Part shown: positions 7,418 to 22,240 of the stretch, in pieces | Layout of the letters: the number at the start of each line of letters is the position of its first letter | Numbering within the stretch: position 1 is the stretch's first letter | NCBI RefSeq assembly: GCF_004011885.1 | Contig: NZ_SBEF01000008.1 | Location: 34,068-58,067, forward strand | Length of the DNA: 24,000 nt | From: Serratia microhaemolytica | Lineage (GTDB): Bacteria > Pseudomonadota > Gammaproteobacteria > Enterobacterales > Enterobacteriaceae | Direction of reading: 5' to 3' | Notes under the pieces: model-generated | Databases searched by the model: none | What the model saw: only the letters and a program-made list of their open reading frames with translations | What the model was told of the DNA's origin: nothing | Translations under genes and position numbers: made by a program

Positions 7418-7493
7418 GCCCGGATAGCTCAGTCGGTAGAGCAGGGGATTGAAAATCCCCGTGTCCTTGGTTCGATTCCGAGTCCGGGCACCA
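7418..7493 (+). tRNA. pheV: tRNA-Phe (anticodon GAA at 7451-7453), encoded CCA
   Basis: The 76-nt sequence GCCCGGATAGCTCAGTCGGTAGAGCAGGGGATTGAAAATCCCCGTGTCCTTGGTTCGATTCCGAGTCCGGGCACCA is identical to E. coli tRNA-Phe as I remember it. The pheV versus pheU symbol is arbitrary. Confidence 0.97.
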
Positions 7494-7760: not shown

Positions 7761-8744
7761 TTATCTCTTTTTATCGGTATAAATCGCCAATTCCGATTCT
7801 AATGTCTTCCCGACGATTTTCATATCTAACTCTACATACTCCATTGTGGTGCTGACACAACAGTGTCCCAGCAGATTTTTCACCAGTTGCAAATTACGAT
7901 CGGGCGACTTCATTAAATCTGTGGCCAAGGTATGGCGAAAACGATGTGGTGACACCTCAAAACCACACATCTTGGAAAGTCGATTGAAAAATGAACGTAC
8001 TTTCTGCCGAGCATGTTCAACATCCCACTCGACTTGCTGATTGAGCACCACGCGATCGACATCAAACAGAAAGTCATTGGCCGTCGCTCCGACAGATTCA
8101 GCCTGTGCCATCAATCGCTGCAAACGTGATTTTAGTACCGTCACAATCGGCACTCGCCATTCTCGGCGAGTTTTACTCCCTTCCAGACACAGATCCAAGT
8201 ACCCTTCAAGGAGATTCACATCACGTAAACGGATATGCAAAAGTTGATTAAATCGTATACCGGTGTAACGCAACATATCAAGCACTGTCAGCCAATACCA
8301 AGCTGGATAAAGGGCATTACGTCCGCCGCGTTGTCCCTGACCTTTGCCTTCCGCCTCTTCACATTGCTCCATCAACAGATAAATTTTGAGCATCTGTGTT
8401 CGCGTCAAGGTTTTCTTTTTCTTTTTGTCACGTGGAACATTGCATTGGTTAAAGGGATTTTTACCCGCAGGCAATAACTCATGCTCCAGCGCATGGTTAT
8501 ATAGCGCCCGCAGGTGTGCCATTTTATTGTTCCATGTCTGCGATGATCGTTTCTTATCATTCAGCAGATGACGCCGCCAGCGCAACACTTGTTGATGGCT
8601 GATCCGTGCCGGTGGCACACCTTCATCCAGATAGTCAACAAACCCCTTAACGACTTTACGGTAGCTCTGCTCTGAAATAGCTTTAAGTCGGCGCGCGAGA
8701 AAATATTCTTCCAAGAGTTCATCCCAAGTGATTTCATTGCACAT
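7761..8744 (-). CDS. int: Tyrosine-type site-specific integrase of the ICE
   Basis: 327 aa. It has an N-terminal SAM-like core-binding region and a C-terminal catalytic region (YTGIRFNQLLHIRLRD ... HRFRHTLATDLM ... LLGHCCVSTTMEYV, i.e. R, HxxR, H, Y). SD ggagaagg is present. It lies adjacent to the tRNA-Phe att region. Confidence 0.88.
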   Translation of the reverse strand: MCNEITWDELLEEYFLARRLKAISEQSYRKVVKGFVDYLDEGVPPARISHQQVLRWRRHLLNDKKRSSQTWNNKMAHLRALYNHALEHELLPAGKNPFNQCNVPRDKKKKKTLTRTQMLKIYLLMEQCEEAEGKGQGQRGGRNALYPAWYWLTVLDMLRYTGIRFNQLLHIRLRDVNLLEGYLDLCLEGSKTRREWRVPIVTVLKSRLQRLMAQAESVGATANDFLFDVDRVVLNQQVEWDVEHARQKVRSFFNRLSKMCGFEVSPHRFRHTLATDLMKSPDRNLQLVKNLLGHCCVSTTMEYVELDMKIVGKTLESELAIYTDKKR

Positions 8745-8757
8745 ATGACCTTCTCCG

Positions 8758-10092
8758 TTATCCTTGTGAAAAGAAAAGATGCTGACTGTCCGCTTGAACA
8801 GTAATGCCTCTCAAGCGGGCAACCTTAATAAGATAACCATTAACTTTGTTAAACTTCATCTTTTTTTCATCAGGTTGGGATAAGTTCGCTGGAGTAAAAC
8901 GTTCTCCTTTTCGTGTACGGTGCAGTTGTAATTTTTCAAAAGCAGACTGGATCTTCTCTCGTTTGTGCTGACATCCACTTTCTTTAATAAATAGATAAAA
9001 AATATCTGGCACCAACAGGTACACGAAACCGGCAATAAAATGCACGCGTGACGCAGGTTCATTCGCGCTAATCGTACCAGTCGACAAACCATGAATCAGC
9101 CAAGTTAGGAACTGTTCCCCGAGTGACCGCACAGGTACTATTTCCGTGTCTCCATAATCCTCCAACGGTACAGGTGATAGTTTTGTGGGTTCATCTGGCA
9201 GCATGACAGGGATCGGTGTGTCCTCAGCAATCTCACTTTGTGATGGCATCACATCAGGCTGAATAGGTGCTACATTGGGCACTGTCTGCGCTGTTGATGG
9301 CAGTAATGTGACGATATCGAACTCATGCGAAGGCACAAGAGGTTCAATCGTTGTGGCGGGTTGGTTCATGGCCAACGGTGAAGCAACACGTTCTGCCGAC
9401 TGTTGCAGTAATGACCTGATTAATGGCATGGCTGGCTTGCTATTCCACAATGCGCCAGCAAGATTACTCAAGGCTGCCGGATTGCCTGCTAACCAACGGA
9501 TCCCCGCTATGGGCATCAACTGATTGGCGATCACCGCAGCCAACGCCGAAATGTCCTTAGCAGCCAGCGAAGATGGACGAAACCGGAAGCGATAAGGCCC
9601 AGCAGGCACAGTGATCCCCGGTTGCCAGATATTTCCCGTACTCTCCTCACCCTCCAGGTGAGTTAATAAGGGCAGATGGTAAAACAGGGCAGCCCAGAAA
9701 ATGACCGCTTGCCACATCACGCCTTGTGATGCCTGATCTTCTGGTGTGGCACCGGGTGGGAACATATAGCCTTTCGACAGCCTAACGGCATTGGCAGTAA
9801 AGCGTAGCGTTAAATCACCAAATCCACCGGTGTATGCCCAGTCACCACAGATAGCAGCAGGAACATGCTGCACATATTCCAGTAACTGGGTGATGGGCAT
9901 CAGATACAGGCTCTGATACAGCTCACTGGGCAGTGAACTGCTCTCCTTAATCTTTAGCAGGCAATCTTGGCGTAATGCGCTGGTCAGCAAGCTATCTACG
10001 GATTCAGGGGCATAGTACCCCTCGTGCGTTGGTGCTAACGAGGTATCACGCAGCGCTGTACGTAATAACAATGTTTTGATTTTACTGAGCAT
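8758..10092 (-). CDS. traI: ICE relaxase/putative helicase, TraI_2 family (PFGI-1 class, MOBH-like)
   Basis: 444 aa. The N-terminal pattern (...LLEYVQHVPAA...GGFGDLTLRFTANAVRL...VIFWAALFYHLP) and the C-terminal block (FLTWLIHGL..ISANEPASRVHFIAGFVYLLVPDIFYLF...IQSAFEKLQLH) resemble the Pfam TraI_2 / TraI_2_C proteins of PAPI-1/ICEclc-type elements. This is recognised from memory only. It stops 13 nt before int. Confidence 0.65.
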   Translation of the reverse strand: MLSKIKTLLLRTALRDTSLAPTHEGYYAPESVDSLLTSALRQDCLLKIKESSSLPSELYQSLYLMPITQLLEYVQHVPAAICGDWAYTGGFGDLTLRFTANAVRLSKGYMFPPGATPEDQASQGVMWQAVIFWAALFYHLPLLTHLEGEESTGNIWQPGITVPAGPYRFRFRPSSLAAKDISALAAVIANQLMPIAGIRWLAGNPAALSNLAGALWNSKPAMPLIRSLLQQSAERVASPLAMNQPATTIEPLVPSHEFDIVTLLPSTAQTVPNVAPIQPDVMPSQSEIAEDTPIPVMLPDEPTKLSPVPLEDYGDTEIVPVRSLGEQFLTWLIHGLSTGTISANEPASRVHFIAGFVYLLVPDIFYLFIKESGCQHKREKIQSAFEKLQLHRTRKGERFTPANLSQPDEKKMKFNKVNGYLIKVARLRGITVQADSQHLFFSQG

Positions 10093-10188
10093 GAAAAGGA
10101 GCCGAGGGAATCAACCCTAATAGACGATTAATTTTGTTATCGCTGATTTCATTCTAAATGAAAGAGTTAAGAGCAAGTTACAAATTCA

Positions 10189-10695
10189 TCAGCGCTTCTC
10201 TTCTTTGAGGTCTTTTTCGTGGAGATCAATGTTTATCAAAGCCAATTTCACCCCCTCATAAATATCCCCTTGCCCCAAATTATGAGCACGCTTCCACAAC
10301 GGTTCATCAAGCGGTAGCCAGAGTGGCAGCCAGTGCGTTGACCCACTGACGGGTGCTGCACTCTCCTGCTCCTTTGAAAGATCTCCTGCTGCGTCTTGAT
10401 ATTCTCCCTTTTTTCTGCTGATGTTATTGCCGATACCAACAAATAGCGCTGTGAAAAAGGACACAGTAAAAGTGAGCATCCAGGCTTGTAAGATCAAGTG
10501 CTTGGCAAAACCCATTTTGACTTCAATAGTGGTGTCTACCATCTCTTGCCCTATCTCAATCAATCCGCTTGTTGGGAAGAATACAACAGACATCATTACG
10601 AAAAATGGCGTAAATAACATGCTCTCTTTCAGTGCATGGATCAGCAGGGGTAATAGTCTTTTGCACGGATTAATGGCGTTTTTCAATGGATTCAT
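10189..10695 (-). CDS. Hypothetical membrane protein (2-3 TM segments, charged C-terminus)
   Basis: 168-aa ORF co-oriented with traI. Hydrophobic segments are FTPFFVMMSVVFFPTSGLI and LILQAWMLTFTVSFFTALFVGIG. No family recognised. Confidence 0.55.
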   Translation of the reverse strand: MNPLKNAINPCKRLLPLLIHALKESMLFTPFFVMMSVVFFPTSGLIEIGQEMVDTTIEVKMGFAKHLILQAWMLTFTVSFFTALFVGIGNNISRKKGEYQDAAGDLSKEQESAAPVSGSTHWLPLWLPLDEPLWKRAHNLGQGDIYEGVKLALINIDLHEKDLKEEKR

Positions 10696-10756
10696 TGTGT
10701 TCTTTCCAATCGCAGATTAAGTCAGCTTACCATGACAAAAACACAACATTGTGACG

Positions 10757-10789
10757 ATAAAAAACTCTCAACAGCGAAGTGAGAGTTTT
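10757..10789 (-). terminator. Intrinsic terminator (minus strand)
   Basis: On the minus strand aaaactctca-cttcgctgt-tgagagtttt is followed by TTTTTTAT. Confidence 0.65.
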
Positions 10790-10903
10790 ATTCAGACAGA
10801 TATCCCCCTCTTTCGAAGGGGATGAGGTTATTCCAAGGTGAATGACTACTTGTAATGTCAAGCGTTCTGGCACCATTGAGACATAGTTAACATCCTCTCT
10901 TTA

Positions 10904-10943
10904 AGAAAAAAAGAGGGCCTTGTCCCATGAGGAACAAGGCCCC
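10904..10943 (-). terminator. Intrinsic terminator of the antirestriction-radC transcription unit
   Basis: On the minus strand gggccttgt-tcctcatggg-acaaggccc (9 bp) is followed by tcTTTTTTTctt, 75 nt past the radC-like stop. Confidence 0.7.
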
Positions 10944-11017
10944 ATGGGGAGATAACAGGGGTTATAACTGCTGCTATCCAACAGTAAATGGTGATGAGAT
11001 CACATTGGGTAAAAACA

Positions 11018-11470
11018 CTACAATAAGCCTTGATCAGCAAAGGAGACTATTTGCCCATGACCAATCACCATATGATCCAGCACAGGGACATCTATCAATG
11101 ACAGTGCTTGCTTTAACCTATCAGTGACCTGCCTGTCTGCTTGGCTGGGTTCTGCCACACCTGAAGGGTGGTTATGGGCAAAAATGACAGCGCCTGCATT
11201 GTAAAACAGCACCTGTTTGACGATTTCTCGCGGATAAACATTGACTGAATTCAATGTGCCAGTGAATACCGTTTCACCGGCAATCAAACGATGTTGGTTG
11301 TCTAGATACATCACAAAAAAGATTTCGCGCTCTAGCCCTTCCAGATGTAAACGCAGGTAGCGACGCACCGTACCAGAATGAGTGAACTGGATCTCACATG
11401 TTTGTAGTCGGCTCTCCAACAAACTGATTGCCTGTGTGATGATTTTCTGTTCATGATCTTGATAATACAT
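11018..11470 (-). CDS. radC: RadC-like JAB/JAMM domain protein (DUF2466)
   Basis: 150 aa with the JAMM motif AVIFAHNHPSGVAEPSQADRQVT and C-terminal LDHMVIG. Typical island RadC/YeeS/YfjY-like protein. Confidence 0.9.
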   Translation of the reverse strand: MYYQDHEQKIITQAISLLESRLQTCEIQFTHSGTVRRYLRLHLEGLEREIFFVMYLDNQHRLIAGETVFTGTLNSVNVYPREIVKQVLFYNAGAVIFAHNHPSGVAEPSQADRQVTDRLKQALSLIDVPVLDHMVIGHGQIVSFADQGLL

Positions 11471-11494
11471 GGTATTTTCCCGTCATAAAAAGGG

Positions 11495-11534
11495 GGGAAT
11501 ACCCTGCCTTTGGCGGGACGTATTCCCGCAAAGG
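11495..11534 (-). promoter_or_regulatory. 5'-leader two-helix RNA motif, copy 3 (upstream of radC-like gene)
   Basis: On the minus strand H1 is CCUUUGCGGGA-AUACG-UCCCGC(C)AAAGG and H2 is GGGAAUAC/GUAUUCCC, followed by CCCUUUUUA. The motif ends 25 nt before ATG 11470. Confidence 0.55.
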
Positions 11535-11589
11535 TTAATGAATTCATCTGCCTCACCGGTAACGGCTTCAGGCATGAATAAACGTGATG

Positions 11590-12057
11590 CTAATCAATTG
11601 CACCGGCAATGGCAAAACTCTCGCGAACGTCAAATGAGTAATCACGAAGCCAGTGATAACATTCGGTGAAGTACTCGTCCTCTTGGTTCTTATCGTGCGC
11701 CAGCTCAGCTAATGCACACAATGCAAACAGTGAAACCGTTATCCCTAATGCCTGAGCGCTCATCTCACCTTGGTAATAATTGGATTGCACGCTGATCCGA
11801 TAGGTCTTTTCAGTCTTAGGACAGATAAAAAAACCTCCATTTGAAAGCGTGTACCAATCCCAACTATCAATCAGGTAATCATCACAGAATTGTCGAGCAA
11901 AACGGAAGCAGAGGTCATTGAAGACAAATAAATTATACTCAATGTTCTGTCTACCCTGTTGCCTCATCGTGACGGACTGTTTGTAACAGCCCAGTGCCAG
12001 AGACTCCTCCCGAAATGCTTGGATGCCGGTTATATTAACTTCAATGGATTGTGTCAT
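11590..12057 (-). CDS. Antirestriction protein, ArdB/KlcA (Pfam Antirestrict) family
   Basis: 155 aa. WDWYTLSNGGFFICP...YQGEMSAQALGITVSLFALCALAE...YHWLRDY...AIAGAID is collinear with E. coli YfjX/YafX/KlcA-type proteins. Confidence 0.85.
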   Translation of the reverse strand: MTQSIEVNITGIQAFREESLALGCYKQSVTMRQQGRQNIEYNLFVFNDLCFRFARQFCDDYLIDSWDWYTLSNGGFFICPKTEKTYRISVQSNYYQGEMSAQALGITVSLFALCALAELAHDKNQEDEYFTECYHWLRDYSFDVRESFAIAGAID

Positions 12058-12077
12058 GGTCGATCCTCAAAACATGC

Positions 12078-12110
12078 AGGATCTGCCCTTTGCGGAGAGA
12101 TCCCGCAAAG
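12078..12110 (-). promoter_or_regulatory. 5'-leader two-helix RNA motif, copy 2 (upstream of antirestriction gene)
   Basis: On the minus strand H1 is CUUUGCGG-GAUCUCU-CCGCAAAG and H2 is GGGAUCU/AGAUCCU (one G.U pair), followed by GCAUGUUUU. The motif ends 21 nt before ATG 12057. Confidence 0.55.
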
Positions 12111-12144
12111 TGTGGGTAAAATGGCAGTATTCAAATAACTTGAC

Positions 12145-12513
12145 TTAGATGTGACGATAAGACCACACAAGTTTTTTAGCTAAAAAACACGCTTCAATGT
12201 AGGCACTGTTGATATCACACCGAATAGAGTCATCAATCGCACAATATTGATAGTGATAATCGCCAGAGGCAGTGAAATAGCGACATAAAATAGTGAATTG
12301 GCAATAACCCTCAATTAAGTTATCAACAATCACGCGACAGCCAAAACTTCCTGACTTGCTCTCCATCCATTTACTTTCAATCACTTGGTACATTTCACGT
12401 TCTGCTTGCTTAATTTTTTTCGGCAAAACATGACGTAAAAATGAAGCGGCGTATTTGAAAAAAGGAACAGTCTGGATCTCAAATCCAACACGGATCTCAG
12501 TTGCTATTTGCAT
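12145..12513 (-). CDS. Hypothetical protein (122 aa), first gene of the antirestriction-radC unit
   Basis: ORF taken from M11 of the track ORF (MQIATEIRVGFEIQ...) because SD ggag lies 7 nt upstream of ATG 12513. No family recognised. Confidence 0.6.
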   Translation of the reverse strand: MQIATEIRVGFEIQTVPFFKYAASFLRHVLPKKIKQAEREMYQVIESKWMESKSGSFGCRVIVDNLIEGYCQFTILCRYFTASGDYHYQYCAIDDSIRCDINSAYIEACFLAKKLVWSYRHI

Positions 12514-12532
12514 GGTGTACTCCAATAAAAAA

Positions 12533-12574
12533 GGGAACACCATGCCCCTGATGGGATGGATGCTCCCTTCAGGG
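12533..12574 (-). promoter_or_regulatory. 5'-leader two-helix RNA motif, copy 1 (upstream of the 122-aa ORF)
   Basis: On the minus strand H1 is CCCUGAAGGGA-GCAUCCA-UCCCAUCAGGG (one A-A mismatch) and H2 is GGGAGCAUC/GGUGUUCCC (two G.U pairs), followed by UUUUUUA. The motif ends 20 nt before ATG 12513. Confidence 0.55.
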
Positions 12575-12627
12575 TGAGTTTAGATTGGATGCCCAGCGCG
12601 TTAGCACTGAAGACATGGCGGTAGATT

Positions 12628-12813
12628 CAAGAAACCTTCATCGTCGCGTCATAGTGCGCGGGTATTGACGATATCTGCTTCCAAAGGTGTGCAGATGTAC
12701 CACATTTGCATGTTCTCCCTTGCAGGCTACGGGAGTGTTGTTGTGCCGCCACCCGAAGGCGTTCCTCACAGGCGACAGGAACATTGGTGGTTGCTCGAAA
12801 GCAACGGATAAGC
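12628..12813. repeat. Structured ~185-nt element, copy A (candidate ncRNA or ssDNA element; strand unresolved)
   Basis: Aligns end to end with 15136-15317. Five helices are conserved, two with compensatory changes. No conserved reading frame. Confidence 0.7.
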
Positions 12814-12891
12814 CTGAACATTCTTGAATGACTTTTCGTAAATGTCAAGACGATACTCTTTTTGGGGTTCCTGGCTCCAATCAAACCATAC

Positions 12892-12920
12892 TTGACGTGA
12901 AAAGTCAGGCACTCTATCAT
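12892..12920 (+). promoter_or_regulatory. parDE promoter (-35 TTGACG, 17 nt, -10 TATCAT)
   Basis: ttgacg-tgaaaagtcaggcactc-tatcat, 29 nt upstream of the parD ATG. A TGAC-N7-GTCA dyad overlaps the -35. Confidence 0.6.
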
Positions 12921-12948
12921 TGTGTGAATAATTAACACTGGAGGCAGC

Positions 12949-13191
12949 ATGAGCAGAACAACAAGTGTGACCATTGGCGAACAACTCAATGCATTCATTA
13001 GCCGTCTCATCGAAAGTGGACGCTACGGCTCTGCCAGTGAAGTGATGCGTTCCGCGTTACGATTGCTTGAGCAGCAGGAAGCCAAAGATGAACAAATTCG
13101 CTTGGCCGTTCTCGCCGGACTGGAAAGCGGCGAGAGCCCTCTCTCACTGAGTGACATCGCTGCACAAAAAAAGCAAAAGCATCGTGTATAA
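12949..13191 (+). CDS. parD: Type II antitoxin, ParD family (ribbon-helix-helix)
   Basis: 80 aa. MSRTTSVTIGEQLNAFISRLIESGRYGSASEVMRSALRLLEQQE is the canonical ParD/COG3609 N-terminus. SD ggagg is present. Confidence 0.88.
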   Translation: MSRTTSVTIGEQLNAFISRLIESGRYGSASEVMRSALRLLEQQEAKDEQIRLAVLAGLESGESPLSLSDIAAQKKQKHRV

Positions 13192-13471
13192 ACTCACTGA
13201 ACGCGCGGCTGATGACTTCGGCGGCATTTATGATTATACCTTGCTGAAATTTGGCGAAGCACAGGCGGATCTTTACACCGATACCCTTGAGGCATTCTTC
13301 GAAACATTAGCTGAAATGCCTACTATCGGACGTGATTATCTTGTCGTTCCTGGCATAATGCGTATTGAATTCCAACAGCATGTTATTTTTTATTCTGTTC
13401 GGGATAACGATATTCTGATTATCCGTATATTACACCAACAAATGAGTCATGAGCGCCATGTAGGGCATTGA
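13184..13471 (+). CDS. parE: Type II toxin, ParE/RelE family
   Basis: (M)YKLTERAADDFGGIYDYTLLKFGEAQADLY...IIRILHQQM is the typical ParE pattern. I chose GTG 13184, which overlaps the parD stop (GTGTATAA). GTG 13151 is an alternative start. Confidence 0.82.
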   Translation: MYKLTERAADDFGGIYDYTLLKFGEAQADLYTDTLEAFFETLAEMPTIGRDYLVVPGIMRIEFQQHVIFYSVRDNDILIIRILHQQMSHERHVGH

Positions 13472-13517
13472 GATTTTAATTAATGTGACGATCATACTGT
13501 TTACATACTTTGTAAAA

Positions 13518-13543
13518 GGTCACAGCCAGTGTGGGCTGTGACC
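13518..13543. terminator. Hairpin between convergent parE and recombinase genes
   Basis: ggtcacagcc-agtgtg-ggctgtgacc (10-bp perfect stem). TTTT follows on the minus strand and the tail on the plus strand is weak. Confidence 0.55.
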
Positions 13544-13567
13544 GAAACGTCCAGCGCTGTGTAACCG

Positions 13568-14455
13568 TTATTCATCGCCCTGACGAAAATAAACCTGTTT
13601 GACATATCGGCCTCTGCCATCACCATGCCCTAAATCCATAGAGACCAATGCGCCTGCTTCTTCACGGCTCATACCCATTTTAATATGATGATCCACTGCA
13701 TCGCGTGCATAAGCATAACGTAAACTGTGTGGCGAATATTTGCCGTTTAAACCGGCTTCACGCACGACATTTCTATACCGATCAATGGCAGTATGTAGTG
13801 AAGACCGATTAATCAGCTTGCCGTCATTTTCATTACAGTACGTTATTGCACGAGCAAGTAGAGACAATACTTTATCACGTTCAAAAATCGTTGTTTCACG
13901 AGGACGCCCCCCTTTAGTGCCAAATACCACACGCACCCGTTCATGACCCTTTTGTAATTCAGCCTGCCACGTCTTAAGCGATTTTGCTGATTGCACCGCT
14001 TCTTCTGTTCTTAAACCAATATAGCGAGAGAGTTCAATCGCCAATGCAACACCAGGATCTTTCTCTAAAACCAATTTAATCACTTCATGCAACTTCTCAT
14101 CAGGGATAGGTCGTTTAGTGCCATCTCGGCTGGCGCCCGCAATCCCCAATGCCCTATTACTCAGTTGTTCATGATGAGAATCAGATAGCTTATTTCTGCC
14201 TGCCACCGACAAGATGGCGCGCAGCGCTGCCATTTCATTTTGCAGTGTACGCAGCGATATATTTTCCACCTTTCGACTATTAATGTAATTTTCAATATGC
14301 TTAATCTTGATGTGTTTTACATCTTTGATTTGAATATTGAGCTTTGCCAGGCGCTCAGAAAATCGGTCAGCAATTTTCGAACGATCCGCCACAGTTTTAA
14401 AGCTCCCACCCGCCTGACGAGCGAATGTTACAAGTTGCTTGCTCAGTTTAGACAT
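13568..14455 (-). CDS. Second tyrosine recombinase (small phage-integrase-family protein, Integrase_1-like)
   Basis: 295 aa with IGLRTEEAV (Arg), SPHSLRYAYA (HxxR) and DLGHGDGRGRYVKQVY (His, Tyr). SD ggaga is present. The subfamily name is from memory only. Confidence 0.75.
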   Translation of the reverse strand: MSKLSKQLVTFARQAGGSFKTVADRSKIADRFSERLAKLNIQIKDVKHIKIKHIENYINSRKVENISLRTLQNEMAALRAILSVAGRNKLSDSHHEQLSNRALGIAGASRDGTKRPIPDEKLHEVIKLVLEKDPGVALAIELSRYIGLRTEEAVQSAKSLKTWQAELQKGHERVRVVFGTKGGRPRETTIFERDKVLSLLARAITYCNENDGKLINRSSLHTAIDRYRNVVREAGLNGKYSPHSLRYAYARDAVDHHIKMGMSREEAGALVSMDLGHGDGRGRYVKQVYFRQGDE

Positions 14456-14809
14456 ATCGATATCTCCAATGGCTCACCCAACCGTCAACAAAATAATTTC
14501 ATCTCCGACGACACGGTTATTCTTGCGCTTCCTGCGTCTCAACGGGTACCTGTGCATCGGAGCGGCGAAATGTTGAGTTATTGCAAGGCTCCCCAGGTCT
14601 CTGACCTGTTTGCTGCTAATGCAGAGCTGACATTCGTCAAGCTGCCTCCGACACTACTTTCGCAGTGTCGCCATCGATACCGAGTTGATTGATTTCCTCC
14701 TTATAAATGGAACGGTTAGACGGTTTACCGTCATCGTTACGTTGATGTTGAAAGTCAATCCCAGTTACCACAGTGACTACGTGTGTGTCAGAGGGTACTG
14801 GAATGGTGA

Positions 14810-14830
14810 AAACCACGCATGGCGTGGTTT
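14810..14830. other. Hairpin aaaccacgc-atg-gcgtggttt
   Basis: 9-bp perfect stem. On the minus strand it reads as stem + TTTTCAC (terminator-like). Confidence 0.45.
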
Positions 14831-14842
14831 GCCGTTAATGAC

Positions 14843-14897
14843 GCTTGCGGCGTCACTTGGTAGTGTCTTCGCCACTTCACAAGTGACGCCGCAAAGC
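14843..14897. repeat. Long imperfect inverted repeat / cruciform-capable hairpin
   Basis: gcttgcggcgtcacttg (14843-14859) pairs with caagtgacgccgcaaagc (14880-14897) with one bulge. An inner agtg/cact stem is present. The left arm also contains the local palindrome tgacgc-ttgcg-gcgtca (14839-14855). Confidence 0.7.
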
Positions 14898-14952
14898 TCC
14901 GTGTTCCTAATGCATCGCCGTAAAGCGGCCAAATGTACCAATTGGCCTTATT

Positions 14953-15024
14953 ACGTCATGCAAAAGTCATACGGATCTCAAGGCGTCATGCAAAGAAATA
15001 AAGACGTTACGTCATAAAGACGTG
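14953..15024. repeat. Phased CGTCAT(G/A)(C/A)AA(A/G) direct repeats (TGACG-type half-sites)
   Basis: cgtcatgcaaa occurs at 14954-14964 and 14984-14994 (30-bp phase) and cgtcataaag at 15010-15019. Extra gacgtt/gacgtg lie at 15003 and 15019. Confidence 0.6.
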
Positions 15025-15135
15025 TTGAAACTCATCTCGGCAAAAATTCCCGATATGAGCGAACTGGCTAGCATGCATGGACAACGCTATGCATGTGCAA
15101 GTGGAATTACAGCCAACATACATATACATGGCTGC

Positions 15136-15317
15136 CAAGAACCTTCATCGTCGCGTCATAGTGCGCTTGTATTGACGACATCTGCTTTCAAAGGTGAGCA
15201 GATTTACCCATTTGCATGGACTCTCTTGCAGGTAACGAGAGCTCATGTAGCCACCCGAAGGCGTTCCTCACAGGCTACTAGGAACATTGGTGGTCGTCGT
15301 TTGACGACAGATAAAGC
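15136..15317. repeat. Structured ~185-nt element, copy B
   Basis: Homologous to 12628-12813 (see copy A). Flanking sequence is unrelated. Confidence 0.7.
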
Positions 15318-15482
15318 GATTGAAGACTATCAGTGGTGGAGGTGTTCGTCAAGCGGTGTCAGCCCAACCCCAAACAACTCCGTAAGATGAGGAGGTTGTT
15401 CAGTGCTGCTTGATGGATGTAAAATGTAGCGACTTATTGACACTACAAGAGATAAATCTAAAAGGATGAATGGTTAAGATAC

Positions 15483-15839
15483 TTGTTTAGCTTTTTTGGA
15501 GCATCATTTATTGCTGTATGTGCTCTTGCTTACAAAGAAAAAGATATTTACTGTAAATTCATCAGAAATCAAATCTGGGTTTTTGGATATTGTCTTTTCG
15601 GGGCAAGCGCTGGCTCACTGGTCACTCTAAATATATTTCATGGATACATTATAAACATAAAAGAACTCATACAGGAGAATAGAACAATTGAAGATTATTA
15701 TAATACTGGTTTTAGTTTTTTGATAATCATGCTTGTATTATCAATAGCGATGCTGGTTACATTGCACATTATTGATAAAATCATTTTTTCAAAAAATAAA
15801 AATGTGAGCAACGTTAAAAATGATGATGGTGGTAGTTAA
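15483..15839 (+). CDS. Hypothetical small membrane protein (3-4 TM), AT-rich
   Basis: 118-aa ORF with hydrophobic segments. Only a TTG start is available (upstream stop at 15459) and there is no good SD, so the coding status is uncertain. Confidence 0.4.
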   Translation: MFSFFGASFIAVCALAYKEKDIYCKFIRNQIWVFGYCLFGASAGSLVTLNIFHGYIINIKELIQENRTIEDYYNTGFSFLIIMLVLSIAMLVTLHIIDKIIFSKNKNVSNVKNDDGGS

Positions 15840-15841
15840 AG

Positions 15842-15869
15842 AAAAAACTGATTTTTTTCGACAAATCAG
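15842..15869 (-). terminator. Intrinsic terminator (minus strand) downstream of the lipoprotein gene
   Basis: On the minus strand ctgattt-gtcgaaaa-aaatcag is followed by TTTTTTC. Confidence 0.55.
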
Positions 15870-16015
15870 CAATCGACTCCATACCGTTCGCCAGGACGCT
15901 GGTTAGCGCCTGGCTTCACGCAATCTGTTGCCCATGAGGGATTTATAGATGACACAATTCAATTCATAGGAATGTGTACGGAAAATAGTTCTAAGACTCG
16001 AGACAATTCCAATAA

Positions 16016-16579
16016 TTATCGAACAGTACCTTCTGCAACACCTTTAACTTCTGCCATTAACTCCTTTAAGCCTTCACCTGTTAACGTTTGAGGGGATGAA
16101 GAACTATAAGTTATATACAGCCGACTCCCTACACCATTTTTTTCAACCTCGATGGTGAGGTGGTCACCATAATCACCCCAATTATTACCCATTTTGTAAT
16201 AACTGCCAGGCATCGACTCCCATTTCTGTCCATTACTAGTAATTGCACTGGCAACCCAATCACCTGATGTATTCTTTTTTCTAATGGCCTCTACTTCTTC
16301 ATTAGAATAAAACTTATAATGCCGCTTCAATCTTGCTGCCGCAGTATCGACATCAACAGGAATGTCATATTGCTTTAATGTCGACTCTTTCTTCGCAACT
16401 TTTTGACTAGATGAAGCTGATGCTGTCTTATCTGCTGAGCCATTGTCAGATTTGAACGCATTCATAAGACTTTCAGCGCCATCACTGACTTTTTTATTTA
16501 TCTCTGATATTTCAGACATAGAACAGGCTGTAGTAAGAATTGACAATAAACCAATCACCAGAACCTTTTTTATAAACAT
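16016..16579 (-). CDS. Hypothetical lipoprotein
   Basis: 187 aa with signal peptide + lipobox MFIKKVLVIGLLSILTTAC. SD aagggg is present. AT-rich. No family recognised. Confidence 0.7.
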   Translation of the reverse strand: MFIKKVLVIGLLSILTTACSMSEISEINKKVSDGAESLMNAFKSDNGSADKTASASSSQKVAKKESTLKQYDIPVDVDTAAARLKRHYKFYSNEEVEAIRKKNTSGDWVASAITSNGQKWESMPGSYYKMGNNWGDYGDHLTIEVEKNGVGSRLYITYSSSSPQTLTGEGLKELMAEVKGVAEGTVR

Positions 16580-16703
16580 ATCATACCCCTTGCTTTCATA
16601 TCACGTATAGTGGAATGAGTAATAAAAAAAATAATTCGTTTATAAAACATTTACAAGAACCTGAAGTAATTCAGGTGAAACCCCAAGAAGACATCTGTCA
16701 AGT

Positions 16704-17285
16704 TCACTGGCGTTCTTTGTCTTCCCGTTTTTCGTTTATCAATCGTCGTTTCAATCTAAAATAGGTGGGTCGCGAGATACCTGTTTTCTCTGCTACTGTT
16801 CTAAATGGCAACCCCTGCTGAATCAGGGATAATGCTGTTGCTGTTGCAGGATGAGGTTTCCTTCCAAACTTTACCCCAGAGTCCATCGCCGCAATACGTC
16901 CTTCATTGGTGCGCTCTAAAATACGTTCACGTTCAGCCTCGGCAACAGCAGCCAGGATCTGGATCACCATTTTCCCCATGGAACCTTCCGTGCTAAGACC
17001 GTTTTCCAAAAAGCGGATAGCAATCCCTTTTTTGTGGCAGGCATCAATGATGTGAATCATATCAGCAGTATTACGTCCAAGCCTGTCCATCTTGGTACAG
17101 ATAATGATATCGTCTTTTTCAGCACGTCCAAGCAAACGCTGTAGACCTTCACGTTCGTCAGTGGCTCCGGTCATCGTGTCGGTAAAAATTCTATCTTCCC
17201 TCACACCAACAGCTTTTAGCTCAGCGAGCTGTAACGTCAGCTTCTGATGGCTGGTTGATACCCTGGCATAGCCCAATAACGCCAT
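16704..17285 (-). CDS. Serine recombinase (resolvase/invertase family)
   Basis: 193 aa with MALLGYARVSTSHQ (catalytic Ser), KMDRLGRN, AAVAEAERERILERT and a C-terminal HTH (GISRPTYFRL). Confidence 0.9.
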   Translation of the reverse strand: MALLGYARVSTSHQKLTLQLAELKAVGVREDRIFTDTMTGATDEREGLQRLLGRAEKDDIIICTKMDRLGRNTADMIHIIDACHKKGIAIRFLENGLSTEGSMGKMVIQILAAVAEAERERILERTNEGRIAAMDSGVKFGRKPHPATATALSLIQQGLPFRTVAEKTGISRPTYFRLKRRLINEKREDKERQ

Positions 17286-17292
17286 TTAAGTC

Positions 17293-17407
17293 TCATAAAT
17301 CGTTTTTGATACACAAGAGTATCATAATATATAAAATACGATTTATGATACTCCTTTTTATGCAAATTTTGATGAGTATCAAATATTATAATATCTGACA
17401 CTCATCA
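17293..17407. promoter_or_regulatory. res-like array of dyad sites upstream of the serine recombinase gene
   Basis: Dyads: tcataaatcgt/acgatttatga (17293-17303 / 17338-17348); tgatac-N6-gtatca (17307-17324); tgatactc-N20-gagtatca (17346-17381); tgatgagt-N22-actcatca (17370-17407). Confidence 0.55.
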
Positions 17408-17498
17408 CGATAACTACAAACCCCTTGAAGCCACCCGCTGATGGTGTCAAGATGGCAGTCGGGCAAATAATCAACAACCAGGCAAGCAGGAGAGTAAC

Positions 17499-17906
17499 AT
17501 GGCAACCAGACAAGAACGTGCTTTCCAGCGTGGTATTCGAGCTGCTGCGTTTTGGCGAAAAGTGAAAAGTGGCGTGTTAGCTTGGGATGCACACTGTGTT
17601 GCTGTGGCGAAAAAACGCAATCTTCCTGGTTGGGTAGGGCATACGCCACTGGGCATCATTGGCTTAACAAGCCTTATACTGGTTGCAATGGGCTTGTTTA
17701 TGGTTGCCAGTATCGTTTTCACCCTGCTCGCAACGTTACTGGCTGTACTTCTACTCAAAACTCCAACCCAATCTGAATCAGGCAACCAAGCGAAAGCAGT
17801 ACAACCAACGGTCGACTCTCCTTACTCTATTTACTCTGGTATGGAGTACAGCGAAGTTACACACCATCAACAAGAACACGATAAGTGGTTTAATAACTGG
17901 TGGTAA
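17499..17906 (+). CDS. DUF3742-like ICE membrane protein
   Basis: 135 aa. A basic N-terminus (MATRQERAFQRGIRAAAFWRKV) is followed by two TM segments. SD aggag is present. Its position divergent from and next to traG is typical of DUF3742 proteins in this ICE family. The family call is from memory. Confidence 0.55.
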   Translation: MATRQERAFQRGIRAAAFWRKVKSGVLAWDAHCVAVAKKRNLPGWVGHTPLGIIGLTSLILVAMGLFMVASIVFTLLATLLAVLLLKTPTQSESGNQAKAVQPTVDSPYSIYSGMEYSEVTHHQQEHDKWFNNWW

Positions 17907-17970: not shown

Positions 17971-19512
17971 TTATTTAGGCATTACATTATCTACTCCCTT
18001 CGTCGCCACAGTTCCGCTAACTTTGGAACCTAGTGAACCGCCCGTGTTTTTAGGTTCTTGACTACCATTACTCAATGATCTCCCTACTGCATCGCCAACA
18101 TTCACCCCAGCCCATGACAACGCCCCAATCCACACCATCGGCAATACCAAGAACATCGAACCCATCACCATGTTCATGATCAGATCATCTGAACTATTTT
18201 GTAACCCAGCCATATTAAAACGGCTATGGGTATCGGAACTGTAGAGTGCCGTTAACAGCCAACTGTCCAGCCAACGTGCCAGCTCCCACCAGAACGTCAG
18301 GAAGTTCAATGCAAAAATCACAAACGTCAATGTGATCACCGTTTTGAACTCATAAGCGGCAAATACCAAAATCAGCGGCAACATCACATACAGCGCCATC
18401 AGTAACACCGCCTGCACCATTGGCAATGCCTGGCGCATCGCATCCAGTGCCGGAAATGCCGCTAGGCTGCCTAATGCCGTACCCGCAATTGAACCGACGC
18501 GTGTAATGGCATTGGTGGTGGTAAAATCCGCATTGCCACCGTAGCCCGCATAGGCGTGTCCATTTTGTGAGGCATTCAGACTTTTCGGGCTGACAAGGCG
18601 GCGGATCACTGCTTCTTCATAATCTCCACTTGCCGCGTTAATCAGTTTCATTGCCGCCGAAATACGTAACCACATGCCCGGATTGGCTTGTGCCATCACC
18701 CGCGCTTTCAAACCATCATCCGCATCACTCCACCATTCCGTACAATAGGGATAGCCCCCTTGCCCGGTGTTCGGGCGTGCGCTGTCACGGCTCTTGATAT
18801 AAGGAAAGTCAGGTCTAGGCATTTTCGATTGCATTTTCGGGTAGTACTCCGCCAAAAACAGTTTACTGCCCAACCATTCGATATCTTTCAGCACCGCTTT
18901 GTCAGTCGTATATCCACGATCAGCTCGCTGCCAGTCGTACAATGCCAACGAATAACAGTCATTGGCAAAATCCTGTAACTCCTCAGCCAAAGCACGGTTG
19001 GCAATACGGGTATGTTGGATCTCAAAACGCAACTGTCGTAGATCAGGGCGGCAAGGAATGGTGGCCACCGAAGCCTGGGTGATCCCCTTTGACAGCTTAT
19101 GCACCAACACCCACCATATCGGCGCGGCAGCCGTTTTGCCATTCAGGCTGGAAATCACATTGGCATAACCACTTTGATCCGGTTTTTTCGGTGTCCAGGT
19201 ACCGCATGTTGCAGCGCGTGAAGCGTCATACTGTAAAGTACTCAGGCTGACGTTGAGCAGCGGCGCACAGCAGGTAATGATCACAAAAAATGCCCCATAC
19301 ACCGTGTTCTCAATACGCGGTAACGAGAGCATTCCCTTGTTGCCTTCATCTTCGCCCTCTTCACGTACTTTCAGCCAAATACTCATCACTTTGAAGGCCA
19401 GGGGCAGCGCAAACAACCCCGTGCCAACCAACAGACTCCACAGGCCGTTATTGATCACCCAGCCCAAGAGCGTTAGAAAAAATTCAAGATAACTGTTAGT
19501 GCTCATCATCAC
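17971..19512 (-). CDS. traG: Conjugal transfer protein TraG (TraG_N domain, GI-type T4SS)
   Basis: 513-aa polytopic membrane protein. MMMSTNSYLEFFLTLLGWVINNGLWSLL...LPRIENTVYGAFFVI matches the TraG_N proteins of ICEHin1056/PAPI-1-type ICEs. Its start overlaps the upstream stop by 4 nt. Confidence 0.8.
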   Translation of the reverse strand: MMMSTNSYLEFFLTLLGWVINNGLWSLLVGTGLFALPLAFKVMSIWLKVREEGEDEGNKGMLSLPRIENTVYGAFFVIITCCAPLLNVSLSTLQYDASRAATCGTWTPKKPDQSGYANVISSLNGKTAAAPIWWVLVHKLSKGITQASVATIPCRPDLRQLRFEIQHTRIANRALAEELQDFANDCYSLALYDWQRADRGYTTDKAVLKDIEWLGSKLFLAEYYPKMQSKMPRPDFPYIKSRDSARPNTGQGGYPYCTEWWSDADDGLKARVMAQANPGMWLRISAAMKLINAASGDYEEAVIRRLVSPKSLNASQNGHAYAGYGGNADFTTTNAITRVGSIAGTALGSLAAFPALDAMRQALPMVQAVLLMALYVMLPLILVFAAYEFKTVITLTFVIFALNFLTFWWELARWLDSWLLTALYSSDTHSRFNMAGLQNSSDDLIMNMVMGSMFLVLPMVWIGALSWAGVNVGDAVGRSLSNGSQEPKNTGGSLGSKVSGTVATKGVDNVMPK

Positions 19513-19862: not shown

Positions 19863-21260
19863 TTATTGATTTTCCAACTGATTGACGCGACTGTCGGTGT
19901 CGTCGTCAATCTGGGTCTGGGGATGAGTAGCAATACGCTGGTTCTCGCGCTCAATAATGGTTAACGCCGAGTTGTTCGCTAGCGCTCGCCGGATTTCCAT
20001 CTCGTTTTTCAATGCAGTCAGTTCACGATCAAGCGCATCAATACGACGTTGCGCCTCTTCCATCGCCGCTTTCTGATTGCTGGCATTAGGTTCAGCCATG
20101 CCGGTGATCAACATGCGACGCATCAATAAAGCGGTCTCTATTGTCTCGGCCATCGCCAATTCACTAGCCAAACGTGCGACTAGGGTGGCATTATCGGGAT
20201 CACGTTTCAGTGCAGTGATTACATTGGCAGTGATAGGAAGCCCACCACTCTTTAATTTCGCCAGTTCCTCAACCGAAAGGGGAACTGCACCATTCACCAG
20301 TTTGACCAACTGCTCACTGTTGCTTTTAGTGGTTTCTTCCAGCATGGGTGAAAAGCCGGTACCTGCCACTGTGCCTGCCTGATCGTCACTGCTGCCGCTG
20401 GTACACTTTGTCGCATCACTACAGGTGCGCTGGGTTTTGTCGCCCAACACTTTCACTACCGCTTGTGCGGCTTCTTCAGCACGGCTGAATTTCTGGCAGA
20501 CGCTGCCATTGCACTGACTGCCACTGACAGCCTGAGTGCTGGTCACCGGCAGACCGTTCATCATATTAAAGCCAGCAGCCACCAAATCATGGGTGGGGCG
20601 AATAGCCGGTTGCCCGGCACCGCCACGCTGTTGCCCACCGATCCAGGGACTCCCTCCTGTGCCCGTGACCTTACGTCCCGCTTCATCACTGCGCACCGCA
20701 TCACCACCGCCGTTATTGACAATCGAGGTGTATTCACTGAACATCGCCTGCTGTGACCAGTCATTGGTGGTGAAATCCGCCATCTTTTTCGCCATGCTCT
20801 CACAGTTCAGTTGTGCCTTATCAAACGCCACATTGGCCTGCAACATACCGTTGGTCAGCATCTCATACAGACCGGGATTGGCGCGTTGAATAAGCATGGC
20901 GGGCAGGCTGGCCACCGCTCCCGTTGCGCCTTGGATCACTTCTCCCATCAGATTTTTAAACCCTGCTGTCATGCCGTTAAGCTGGTTGCCCACTGTGGTT
21001 TTCAAATCAAAATTCCCACACATCAGATTGCTGCGCCAACCGATGTTGAACCCTAGCTTTTGCATCTGACTGCGGGTTGGCGGTTGTGAAATCACCGAAC
21101 CGCCACCGAGGGTATAAAATAACCTGTCGGAAACAGCACCAGTGACCGCTGCACCGGTGCTGTTTCCGCTCATCTGGGATGACAAAATGGGGAGGGCTGC
21201 CCATGAAGACAGGCTGGACAATGCGAAGGTAGCCACAACAAACATCTGCGAAATTTTCAT
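19863..21260 (-). CDS. ICE T4SS protein, PFL_4711 (TIGR03755) family, secreted
   Basis: Start moved to ATG 21260 (SD gaggggg 6 nt upstream), giving MKISQMFVVATFALSSLSSWA as signal peptide. The size and the position between the TraU-like gene and TraG fit the conserved gene order. Confidence 0.7.
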   Translation of the reverse strand: MKISQMFVVATFALSSLSSWAALPILSSQMSGNSTGAAVTGAVSDRLFYTLGGGSVISQPPTRSQMQKLGFNIGWRSNLMCGNFDLKTTVGNQLNGMTAGFKNLMGEVIQGATGAVASLPAMLIQRANPGLYEMLTNGMLQANVAFDKAQLNCESMAKKMADFTTNDWSQQAMFSEYTSIVNNGGGDAVRSDEAGRKVTGTGGSPWIGGQQRGGAGQPAIRPTHDLVAAGFNMMNGLPVTSTQAVSGSQCNGSVCQKFSRAEEAAQAVVKVLGDKTQRTCSDATKCTSGSSDDQAGTVAGTGFSPMLEETTKSNSEQLVKLVNGAVPLSVEELAKLKSGGLPITANVITALKRDPDNATLVARLASELAMAETIETALLMRRMLITGMAEPNASNQKAAMEEAQRRIDALDRELTALKNEMEIRRALANNSALTIIERENQRIATHPQTQIDDDTDSRVNQLENQ

Positions 21261-21271
21261 CACGATCCCCC

Positions 21272-22240
21272 TCAAAAATTAGTACTAGTTAAAAAGCGCT
21301 GTCCTCGACGCTGGCAACAGCTATAAGGTTGCCAGAGTGCAAATGCCGCAGTGTTGTCACTGGCCGCACTGTGACTACCATCGGGAAATACCGCACACTG
21401 GCGGCTCATTTGCGGTGCTAAACGTTGCCATTTGTGATTGCGAGCGTTGTTTTCTTCTACGGGATCCGGTGGCCAATAACCGTCTTTACGGTTGCCTTTT
21501 AAAGTCTGATAAACATGTGCCTGGCCACTGCGGGTAATGATGTCTGCTACCCGCTGTGCCACCACGGCGGCGGCTTTATCATCATCAACCTGATGAATAA
21601 ACCCTGAACGCGGGTAGACCGCGCCCCACATATTGCCGCTCAATTGACTACCCACTTCACGCGAGCCGGGGATCAAGGCTTCCGGGTAGAGCGTTTCGGG
21701 GATACTCAGACGCCAGGCCACTACATCCAAAGGACTCAGAAAATAGGGCATAAACGGCGTGGCAGCAGTACTACAGGAGTAACCGGGTACACTGCCACCA
21801 ATCGTTGAAGTGGCCGGATGCCCGATGGCATCGGCGTATTTAAAACGCAACTTGGTATCACGTTGCTTGGGGTTTTTCATATCAGCAGGATTACCGCCAT
21901 CCGCAGAGAACCCGGTTAGGCTGCTGGTGAGCAGATTTTCCATCCCCCCTGACGTCTTGCTGACCAACGCCATTTCCTTCCAGGGATTCCCCCCTGGTGT
22001 GCCATAGGTCGAGACCACCACTTCAGGAATAAAGTGGGTCACTTTTACTGAAGTTTTAACCGTACAGCCAAACATCGAGCAGAACAGCCAATAACAGACG
22101 CCACTGACACGCCAACTGATACAATCCTGTGTCAATGCGCTGGCCGCAATCTGTGCCGTATTCATTGCCGCCACCGTAGCCGGTAGTGTCGCAGTAAACA
22201 GCGTGGTGGCCACGGCAATTGCTGAGCTGGTTCGCTTCAT
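21272..22240 (-). CDS. traU: TraU-like ICE T4SS protein, PFL_4710 (TIGR03756) family
   Basis: 322 aa with a signal peptide. The Cys-rich motif CISWRVSGVCYWLFCSMFGC is typical of the TraU family. ATGA overlap with the upstream gene. Confidence 0.78.
   Translation of the reverse strand: MKRTSSAIAVATTLFTATLPATVAAMNTAQIAASALTQDCISWRVSGVCYWLFCSMFGCTVKTSVKVTHFIPEVVVSTYGTPGGNPWKEMALVSKTSGGMENLLTSSLTGFSADGGNPADMKNPKQRDTKLRFKYADAIGHPATSTIGGSVPGYSCSTAATPFMPYFLSPLDVVAWRLSIPETLYPEALIPGSREVGSQLSGNMWGAVYPRSGFIHQVDDDKAAAVVAQRVADIITRSGQAHVYQTLKGNRKDGYWPPDPVEENNARNHKWQRLAPQMSRQCAVFPDGSHSAASDNTAAFALWQPYSCCQRRGQRFLTSTNF

Follow-up and report, generated by a model that had tools for sequence, protein, structure and literature searches.

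Within a stretch of 24,000 nucleotides (nt) of DNA from Serratia microhaemolytica (contig NZ_SBEF01000008.1, positions 34,068 to 58,067), which we refer to as the window, an element of about 185 nt is present twice, at positions 12628-12813 (copy A) and 15136-15317 (copy B). Both copies lie in an integrative and conjugative element (ICE), and the pair raises the questions of what the element is, which of its strands folds, and what it may do for the genes next to it. An earlier note, made from the sequence alone, had described the pair as two diverged copies with unrelated flanks and had proposed a candidate new non-coding RNA (ncRNA) or an element acting as single-stranded DNA (ssDNA). The description of the pair proved accurate. 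The two copies can be aligned from end to end with 156 of 189 columns identical (82.5%) and 10 gap columns, while their 100-nt flanks, with 50% and 49% identity, are no more alike than shuffled sequences scored in the same way (mean 50%, maximum 54.5%).

The repeated element is the STAXI motif

Comparison of the whole window with all 4227 Rfam families revealed four matches above the gathering score of the respective family:

12628..12813, minus strand: STAXI copy A, full conserved element (Rfam RF01728 match at 12672-12806, 86.1 bits; full extent from the conservation in homologues)
15136..15317, minus strand: STAXI copy B, full conserved element (RF01728 match at 15161-15309, 78.7 bits)
14540..14688, minus strand: EFASI RNA motif RF02957 (86.1 bits; gathering score 51.2)
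7418-7490: tRNA with the anticodon GAA (tRNA-Phe)

Both STAXI matches are full-length on the model and reach about twice its gathering score of 40.5 bits. It is as good as certain that the element is the known STAXI motif, encoded in both copies on the minus strand. The suggestion of a new ncRNA is overturned by the very check that the earlier note had proposed, a cmsearch against STAXI. The motif was catalogued in 2010. A permissive scan of the region 10000-17500 (E<=1) yielded no further family; the radC RNA motif (RF01754), which had also been put forward, had no match there even at this threshold.

The name STAXI stands for "Ssbp, Topoisomerase, Antirestriction, XerDC Integrase". According to Weinberg et al. 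2010 (PMC2864571), STAXI is a pseudoknot occurring in two or three repeats near DNA-handling genes; a role as ssDNA was raised there, and RNA was preferred owing to the UUCG loops. Rfam types the family as Gene; sRNA (small RNA), and the name of EFASI is given as "frequently around STAXI and integrases". STAXI and radC RNAs together make up 80% of the RNAs in ICEs of the MPF_G class (Cury et al., PMC5587801). The two copies in the window agree with this description. Genes for Antirestrict (PF03230) and RadC proteins follow copy A, and an Integrase_1 (PF12835) gene follows copy B. The pseudoknot is repeated in three units with a common topology, and the loop cUUCGg is present in unit 1 of both copies, with other loops in units 2 and 3.

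As a discovery this carries little weight, since a routine Rfam scan annotates both copies. For the field of ICEs and orphan RNAs the value lies elsewhere: the strand is settled, RNA rather than ssDNA is strongly argued for, and the 5' end is fixed by a promoter. Added to this are a third pseudoknot unit, which was completed where the Rfam model stops in this subfamily, and two classes of STAXI architecture.

Homologues and conserved boundaries

A loose core pattern applied to species-representative genomes mostly gave chance matches in GC-rich genomes; 8 of 119 loci were real, all of them in Enterobacterales. Among plasmids, BLAST detected the element in 42 records, from Pantoea, Klebsiella, Salmonella, Erwinia, Xenorhabdus and others, at no more than three copies per record, and a specific pattern detected 120 loci on metagenome contigs. 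Many of the latter contain a STAXI pair spaced by 2.2-2.8 kb, as in the window. A profile built from both window copies found 237 matches, which correspond to approximately 100 distinct near-full-length sequences. All homologues from genomes and plasmids belong to Enterobacterales (Erwinia, Pantoea, Klebsiella, Salmonella, Xenorhabdus). The only match to the STAXI pattern in the viral collection was on the IMG/VR contig IMGVR_UViG_2744055093_000005 (1210-1294), with unit cores 47 nt apart instead of the usual 61-64 nt.

Conservation across the roughly 100 homologues stops at about 12626-12631 on one side and at about 12812 on the other, matching the boundaries that had been drawn by eye. The 3' end of STAXI is thereby located about 40 nt past the end of the Rfam match (12672 in copy A and 15161 in copy B). 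The conservation is structural and not coding, as the earlier note had stated: the ATG at 12710 opens 33 codons in copy A, and its equivalent in copy B is followed by a stop after 21 codons in a shifted frame.

A 5' hairpin and three pseudoknot units

The fold predicted for STAXI from the homologues has a hairpin at the 5' end and, after it, three H-type pseudoknot units that share one topology. In each unit the 5' strand of the pseudoknot stem (PK) is followed by the 5' strand of stem P1, a CUGNNA-type linker, the 3' strand of PK, an inner hairpin and the 3' strand of P1. In copy A the parts are:

12790..12805, minus strand: 5' terminal hairpin, supported by covariation (helix 5 of the earlier note)
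12745..12782, minus strand: pseudoknot unit 1, with PK GUUCC/GGAAC, P1 GUCGCC/GGCGGC and the inner hairpin GCC-UUCG-GGU
12697..12735, minus strand: pseudoknot unit 2, with PK CUCCC/GGGAG, P1 GUA-CC/GGUAC and the inner hairpin ACAU-GCAA-AUGU
12634..12696, minus strand: pseudoknot unit 3, with PK AUCUGC/GCAGAU, the inner hairpin AUCGUC/GACGAU and P1 ACCUU (12684-12688)/AAGGU (12634-12638)

The structure was evaluated in an alignment of 25 representatives with less than 93% identity to each other, in which it comprises 51 pairs in ten helices. Here 92.6% of the cells are paired, compared to 33-53% when the partners are slid by 1-3 columns, and 22 pairs are changed on both sides, compared to 2-8 with slid partners. 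None of 500 shuffles reached the observed values.

The individual helices are supported to different degrees. In the 5' hairpin, 101 sequences show 486 Watson-Crick pairs, 11 G·U pairs and no mismatch, and four of the five pairs change on both sides. Between the two copies the sequence of this hairpin is indeed replaced while its pairing is kept, as the earlier note had claimed. At the level of 63 distinct repeat units, the PK stem GxUCC/GGAx'C, which the earlier note had drawn as its inner helix 4 (gttcct/aggaac), covaries at x (TA 26 / AT 26 / CG 7 / TG 4), and the Rfam stem P1 does so at five positions, for example CG 45 / TA 14, GC 51 / AT 12, and AT 25 / GC 15 / TA 5 / CG 4. In the hairpin inside unit 1, one G·U pair is invariant and the loop is cUUCGg. 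In unit 2, the PK stem (helix 3 of the earlier note) contains the C:G to T:A double change that had been noticed between the two copies, and it covaries at one pair across the homologues (CG 64 / TA 31). P1 and the inner hairpin of this unit are the weakest helices (75-77% paired).

In unit 3 the PK stem (the former helix 2) is invariant, and the enlarged inner hairpin (helix 1) covaries as it had been drawn, with GC 86 / AT 15 in the full-length set and GC 21 / AT 4 in the representatives. The P1 stem of this unit forms between the ACCUU loop of helix 2 and AAGGU in the 3' tail, and in the 25 representatives it shows compensatory changes at two pairs (AU 12 / GC 5 / GU 4 and UA 16 / CG 7). 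Therefore, the 3' part of STAXI is a third pseudoknot unit. It lies outside the Rfam match, the covariance model stopping early because the inner hairpin of unit 3 is enlarged.

All five helices of the earlier note can be drawn in both copies, and four and a half of them are supported. The exception is the outer half of helix 4, ccacc/ggtgg. Its strands are complementary, yet it competes with one of the P1 stems and never covaries; its single variable pair is broken in 5 of the 25 sequences, exactly where P1 compensates. In addition, the helix set was incomplete, since the three P1 stems had been missed.

With the covariation at hand, another origin of the pair can be considered, namely that the copies are remains of a mobile repeat (a miniature inverted-repeat transposable element or the end of an insertion sequence), a degraded duplicated gene, or attachment-site (att) duplicates produced by the Integrase_1 recombinase. 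Indeed, a recombinase gene lies between the copies, which are direct and 2.5 kb apart, and the recurrence of the 2.2-2.8 kb spacing in many loci would fit this as well. However, the 17% divergence extends along the whole length and includes compensatory changes, no frame is conserved, terminal inverted repeats or a transposase were not found, and the family is a curated RNA family. Moreover, single copies are located before unrelated operons, with up to three per plasmid. These origins are essentially excluded by the covariation and by the many unrelated operons that STAXI precedes, and we consider any of them extremely improbable.

The minus strand folds, downstream of a conserved promoter

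The earlier note had left the strand open. A G·U pair on the minus strand corresponds to an A·C mismatch on the plus strand and vice versa, and thus the two can be counted against each other. The ratio of G·U to A·C was 120:13 over the helices of the earlier note in 101 sequences, 28:8 at the level of the repeat units and 76:29 over the full structure in the 25 representatives. The excess of G·U over A·C means that the minus strand folds. This is also the sense strand of all neighbouring ICE genes, and we are confident that an RNA is made from the minus strand.

The same orientation is given by promoters that precede both copies:

12820..12848, minus strand: sigma-70-type promoter of copy A, TTGACA (12848-12843), spacer of 17 nt, AAGAAT (12825-12820), 10 of 12 consensus matches
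15324..15352, minus strand: sigma-70-type promoter of copy B, TTGACG (15352-15347), spacer of 17 nt, TAGTCT (15329-15324), with a TG extended -10 region

The predicted transcription start of copy A is at about 12813. An equivalent sigma-70 promoter, defined by at least 8 of 12 matches, A at -11, T at -7 and a distance of 12-17 nt (mode 14) from the end of the -10 region to the first paired base of the 5' hairpin, is present in 92 of 95 distinct homologue 5' contexts. When the same test was applied at 30,000 random positions of the same loci, 2.3% were positive. The promoters comprise 26 combinations of hexamers and spacer in otherwise diverged flanks, which argues that the promoter is kept by selection and not by descent alone. 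Because the promoter is found at a fixed distance in nearly all contexts, STAXI is the 5' end of an RNA; that the promoters are used, we infer. The -10-like hexamers on the plus strand to which the earlier note had drawn attention (tagatt, 12622-27; tataca, 15123-28) do exist in the window, but they are outside the conserved block, and the flanks differ among the homologues.

The alignment file of the authors of STAXI contains a pseudoknot line and no promoter annotation. The conserved promoter and the split into copies linked to EFASI or to a terminator, which are described here, were not found in the searched parts of the 2010 paper and its supplement (PMC2864571).

Next to the promoter of copy A, two further features were observed. 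A perfect 9-nt inverted repeat, TGACTTTTC / GAAAAGTCA (12829-12837 / 12899-12907), spans the region from this promoter to a divergent plus-strand promoter, TTGACG-17-TATCAT (12892-12920), which precedes parD (12949-13191) and parE (13151-13471). Possibly this repeat serves ParD as an operator and touches the -35 region of STAXI copy A as well. The DUF2442 gene, which in small plasmids is the conserved divergent gene beside the promoter, is not present in the window.

The strand and the promoter also bear on the possibility that the element acts as ssDNA during conjugation, be it as an ssi priming signal, as a Frpo-like promoter on the transferred strand or as a part of oriT, where transfer originates. 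Weinberg et al. raised a role of this kind in view of the DNA-handling neighbours (PMC2864571). Further, the element is in the apparent leading region beside the relaxase gene, F-like plasmids carry repeated structured elements before ssb and antirestriction genes (PMC11541004), and STAXI is also found on small plasmids, which need priming signals. On the other hand, a Frpo-type element must fold on the template strand, which is the transferred one, while STAXI folds on the gene-sense strand. Its -35 and -10 boxes are located upstream of the structure and not paired within it, and a DNA role leaves unexplained why an ordinary promoter is conserved at a fixed distance. The cUUCGg loops stabilise RNA and not DNA, and the Frpo candidates published by Samuel et al. 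do not contain the STAXI core. Thus, the ssDNA alternative of the earlier note found no support, and we judge it to be very improbable. Two specific variants, a mini-hairpin d(cGAAg) formed by plus-strand DNA and a Frpo-like fold-back of the promoter, were both ruled out by the strand asymmetry. The only nearby inverted repeat, the 9-nt one at copy A, belongs to the promoter of the divergent parDE pair and leaves the -10 region uncovered.

Two classes of downstream architecture

Downstream of the two copies the window contains the following features:

12525..12548, minus strand: terminator-like hairpin with a T-run between copy A and the next open reading frame (ORF)
12145-12513/12543, minus strand: ORF without Pfam or NCBIfam match, the next after copy A
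11590-12057, minus strand: ArdB/KlcA-type antirestriction gene, Antirestrict PF03230
11018-11470, minus strand: RadC PF04002
14849..14890, minus strand: conserved hairpin GGCGUCACUU...AAGUGACGCC in the spacer between STAXI copy B and EFASI, 10 bp with a loop of about 22 nt
13568..14455, minus strand: Integrase_1 (PF12835) tyrosine recombinase, after EFASI

As noticed early on, on the minus strand copy A is upstream of the antirestriction-radC unit and copy B is upstream of the second recombinase. The homologues fall into two corresponding classes. In class i (61 of 108 STAXI instances, like copy B), EFASI follows on the same strand at a distance of 300-450 nt, in the window 448 nt downstream of copy B. 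Wherever an ORF is present after EFASI, it is an Integrase_1 gene in 39 of 43 cases. EFASI has an own positioned sigma-70 promoter in just 2 of 54 contexts, and terminator-like hairpins are found in 1 of 53 class-i contexts. The spacer between STAXI and EFASI is poorly conserved apart from its hairpin, which belongs to no Rfam family and has a nearly invariant stem with two covarying pairs (CG 57 / TA 2; TA 39 / GC 20). Judging from this arrangement, EFASI may be a part of the STAXI transcript rather than the independent sRNA described in Rfam, and the simplest reading of class i is one long transcript comprising STAXI, the spacer hairpin, EFASI and the integrase gene.

In class ii, to which copy A corresponds (47 of 108), EFASI is absent, and STAXI is followed by genes for DUF3577 proteins, small unknown ORFs or antirestriction genes. 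In the window, the Shine-Dalgarno sequence GGAG and the ATG of the ORF after copy A are found at 12523-12511, just past the terminator-like hairpin. The listed start codon of this ORF (ATG 12543) falls inside the hairpin, and the ATG at 12513-12511 after the GGAG is the better start. The 80 nt before it offer overlapping G/C-rich hairpin options (GGGA..UCCC, CCC..GGGG, and GGGGCA..UUCCC followed by U6) and resemble an attenuator.

Among 93 homologues, 25 have a terminator-like hairpin within 200 nt past STAXI. No such hairpin abuts the conserved 3' boundary in this set, apart from four early ones that are the inner hairpin of unit 3, and the T-run that one consensus shows at the boundary is not general among the homologues.

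The arrangement in the window has a counterpart, of class ii, in SGI-4 of Salmonella Typhimurium (NZ_CP061046.1; locus L245, 2956-9979). There, an Integrase_1 gene, a hypothetical gene and STAXI are followed by an operon with ArdC-like, DUF1281 and N6-DNA-methylase genes. SGI-4, which was deposited as a circular 'plasmid', is an experimentally tractable ICE.

Possible function of STAXI

Considered as a whole, these results are probably best explained by STAXI copies with own promoters that would form the 5' domains of longer transcripts and act as cis-acting leaders. The last part, a cis-acting leader as the function of STAXI, is a tentative proposal based on the sequence comparisons, and it may well turn out otherwise. 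Each copy would be transcribed from its own sigma-70 promoter, with a start a few nt before the first hairpin, and the first 185 nt or so of the RNA would fold into the 5' hairpin and the three pseudoknots. STAXI would then be the 5' domain of a longer transcript and not a compact, terminated sRNA. From copy A, transcription would lead via the terminator-like hairpin into the unknown ORF, the ArdB/KlcA-type antirestriction gene and radC, and from copy B via the conserved hairpin and EFASI into the Integrase_1 recombinase gene. In this way a common leader module would head several establishment and accessory operons of the ICE and put them under shared control after transcription initiation. 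Candidates for such control are protection of the 5' end, read-through of a downstream terminator or of Rho-dependent termination on the long untranslated leader, and binding of a shared protein.

Several observations weigh against this proposal. First, terminator-like hairpins occur 40-105 nt after STAXI in 20 of 36 class-ii contexts (random windows: 14%), and a stand-alone sRNA about 250-300 nt long would be compatible with them as well. Second, small ColE1-like plasmids of 4.4-8.4 kb from Pantoea, Kosakonia and Mixta (NZ_CP134743.1, NZ_CP069322.1, NZ_CP082907.1 and NZ_CP032706.1) carry the promoter, STAXI, the spacer and EFASI without an integrase gene and without any gene on the same strand afterwards. 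Therefore, pure cis regulation of a downstream ORF is not the whole story. In these plasmids, for which Rop was found and RNAI was detected in three of the four, the module is located between a gene for a helix-turn-helix protein and the DUF2442 gene, on the strand of RNAI. Third, the promoters in the window are consensus matches, and the start is predicted, not mapped. Fourth, the homologues are phylogenetically related and originate mostly from one pattern-based metagenome scan, so that the counts are not independent events. Finally, the folding energy of a single copy, calculated for either strand with a model that leaves out pseudoknots, was no better than that of shuffled sequences (z = -0.89 and +0.58). 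As the energy is indistinguishable from shuffles on both strands, the support for the structure is comparative and not thermodynamic.

The first two points, together with the own promoter and the Rfam type, would suit a stand-alone ncRNA acting in trans, consisting of STAXI alone or with the spacer and EFASI. As a sponge or decoy, it could hold several copies of a host or ICE protein on its three pseudoknots, or it could be an RNA anti-defence factor expressed on entry; the repeated units suggest multivalent binding. Further, STAXI and EFASI RNAs were detected in E. coli vesicles by reverse transcription quantitative PCR (PMC12370729), although this detection was not strand-specific. Against such an RNA, most STAXI copies have no terminator near their 3' boundary, and those of class i continue into EFASI and the integrase gene. 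Moreover, targets complementary to the invariant single-stranded motifs are not enriched in 874 kb of related loci (8 found, 6.7 expected). A function in trans therefore appears rather unlikely to us, and the cis-acting leader remains the preferred proposal.

It is tempting to go one step further and to speculate that STAXI is a promoter-coupled, cis-acting RNA device that would provide a burst of expression of ICE establishment operons after entry, even though we regard this as a long shot. In one version, RNA polymerase would be made resistant to downstream intrinsic or Rho-dependent terminators in a manner similar to put of phage HK022. In another version, STAXI would be an operator bound by an ssDNA-binding protein once the incoming ssDNA is gone, similar to the autoregulation of T4 gene 32. 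If true, this would give the motif, an orphan since 2010, a function, and STAXI would be the counterpart, at the level of RNA, of the Frpo single-strand promoters found in plasmids.

A different RNA-based system was also considered. A ToxI-like antitoxin of a type III toxin-antitoxin system was rejected, because the repeat units are not identical and no ToxN/AbiE-type toxin is encoded downstream.

The host ICE and other features of the window

The host element is an ICE of the PFGI-1/MPF_G class inserted at tRNA-Phe, with the TIGR03760 relaxase, TIGR03755 and TIGR03756 as markers. The left third of the window is chromosomal (GntP permease, Edd-type dehydratase) and ends at the tRNA-Phe gene. 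It is followed by the ICE, whose further features are:

7761-8744: tyrosine integrase
8758-10092, minus strand: MobH/TraI relaxase (TIGR03760)
12949-13471, plus strand: parDE pair
16704-17285: Resolvase
17971-19512: TraG_N
19863-21275: TIGR03755
21272-22240: TIGR03756/TraU
22237-22641: DUF1525

For a relaxase of the MobH/PFGI-1 class the encoded protein is short (444 amino acids) and contains only about 200 N-terminal positions of TraI_2 and the C-terminal TraI_2_C domain. The adjacent region 10092-11018 is the likely location of oriT and of the boundary of the leading region. Searches against Pfam and NCBIfam gave no match for three ORFs of the ICE, all on the minus strand: 12145-12513, 10189-10695 and 16016-16579, with about 122-132, 168 and 187 amino acids, respectively. 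An ORF of the S8 subtilase family at 22796-23956 (minus strand) shows a weak likeness to the anti-phage peptidase IteS (NF042956), with 42.9 bits being far below the cut-off of 900.

Comparison with known systems

The copies in the window share with the known STAXI motif the 5' hairpin, the pseudoknot in three repeats, the cUUCGg loop, the antirestriction and integrase neighbours and the location in an MPF_G ICE. They differ from the Rfam model in belonging to a subfamily in which the inner hairpin of unit 3 is enlarged and unit 2 is devoid of a UUCG loop. EFASI is found where its Rfam description places it, 300-450 nt after STAXI and before an integrase gene. Its structure is distinct from that of STAXI, and in the loci analysed here it is apparently co-transcribed with it, as judged from the rarity of own promoters.

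The Frpo/ssi elements that F-like and IncI plasmids carry in their leading regions (Masai & Arai 1997; PMC11541004) are also repeated structured elements, of 200-300 nt, before establishment genes. However, Frpo folds as DNA on the template strand, which in the leading regions of F-like plasmids is the transferred strand (PMC11541004), and its stem contains the -35 and -10 boxes. In STAXI it is the sense strand that folds, and the promoter is an ordinary one located upstream. No sequence similarity between Frpo and STAXI was found. With Reg576 of the Gram-positive plasmid p576 (PMC6294495), STAXI has in common that one repeated module heads several establishment operons, including one for antirestriction, which in p576 allows their coordinated expression after entry. 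In p576 the module is DNA, the operator of a repressor protein, while STAXI is a transcribed RNA structure with no known regulator.

The antiterminator put of phage HK022 and the pseudoknot in the leader of T4 gene 32 are promoter-proximal, cis-acting structured RNAs at the 5' end of transcripts. By analogy only, STAXI resembles them as a structured 5' RNA in a mobile element, located before terminators or genes for DNA-binding proteins; neither sequence similarity nor a demonstrated structural similarity links it to either of the two.

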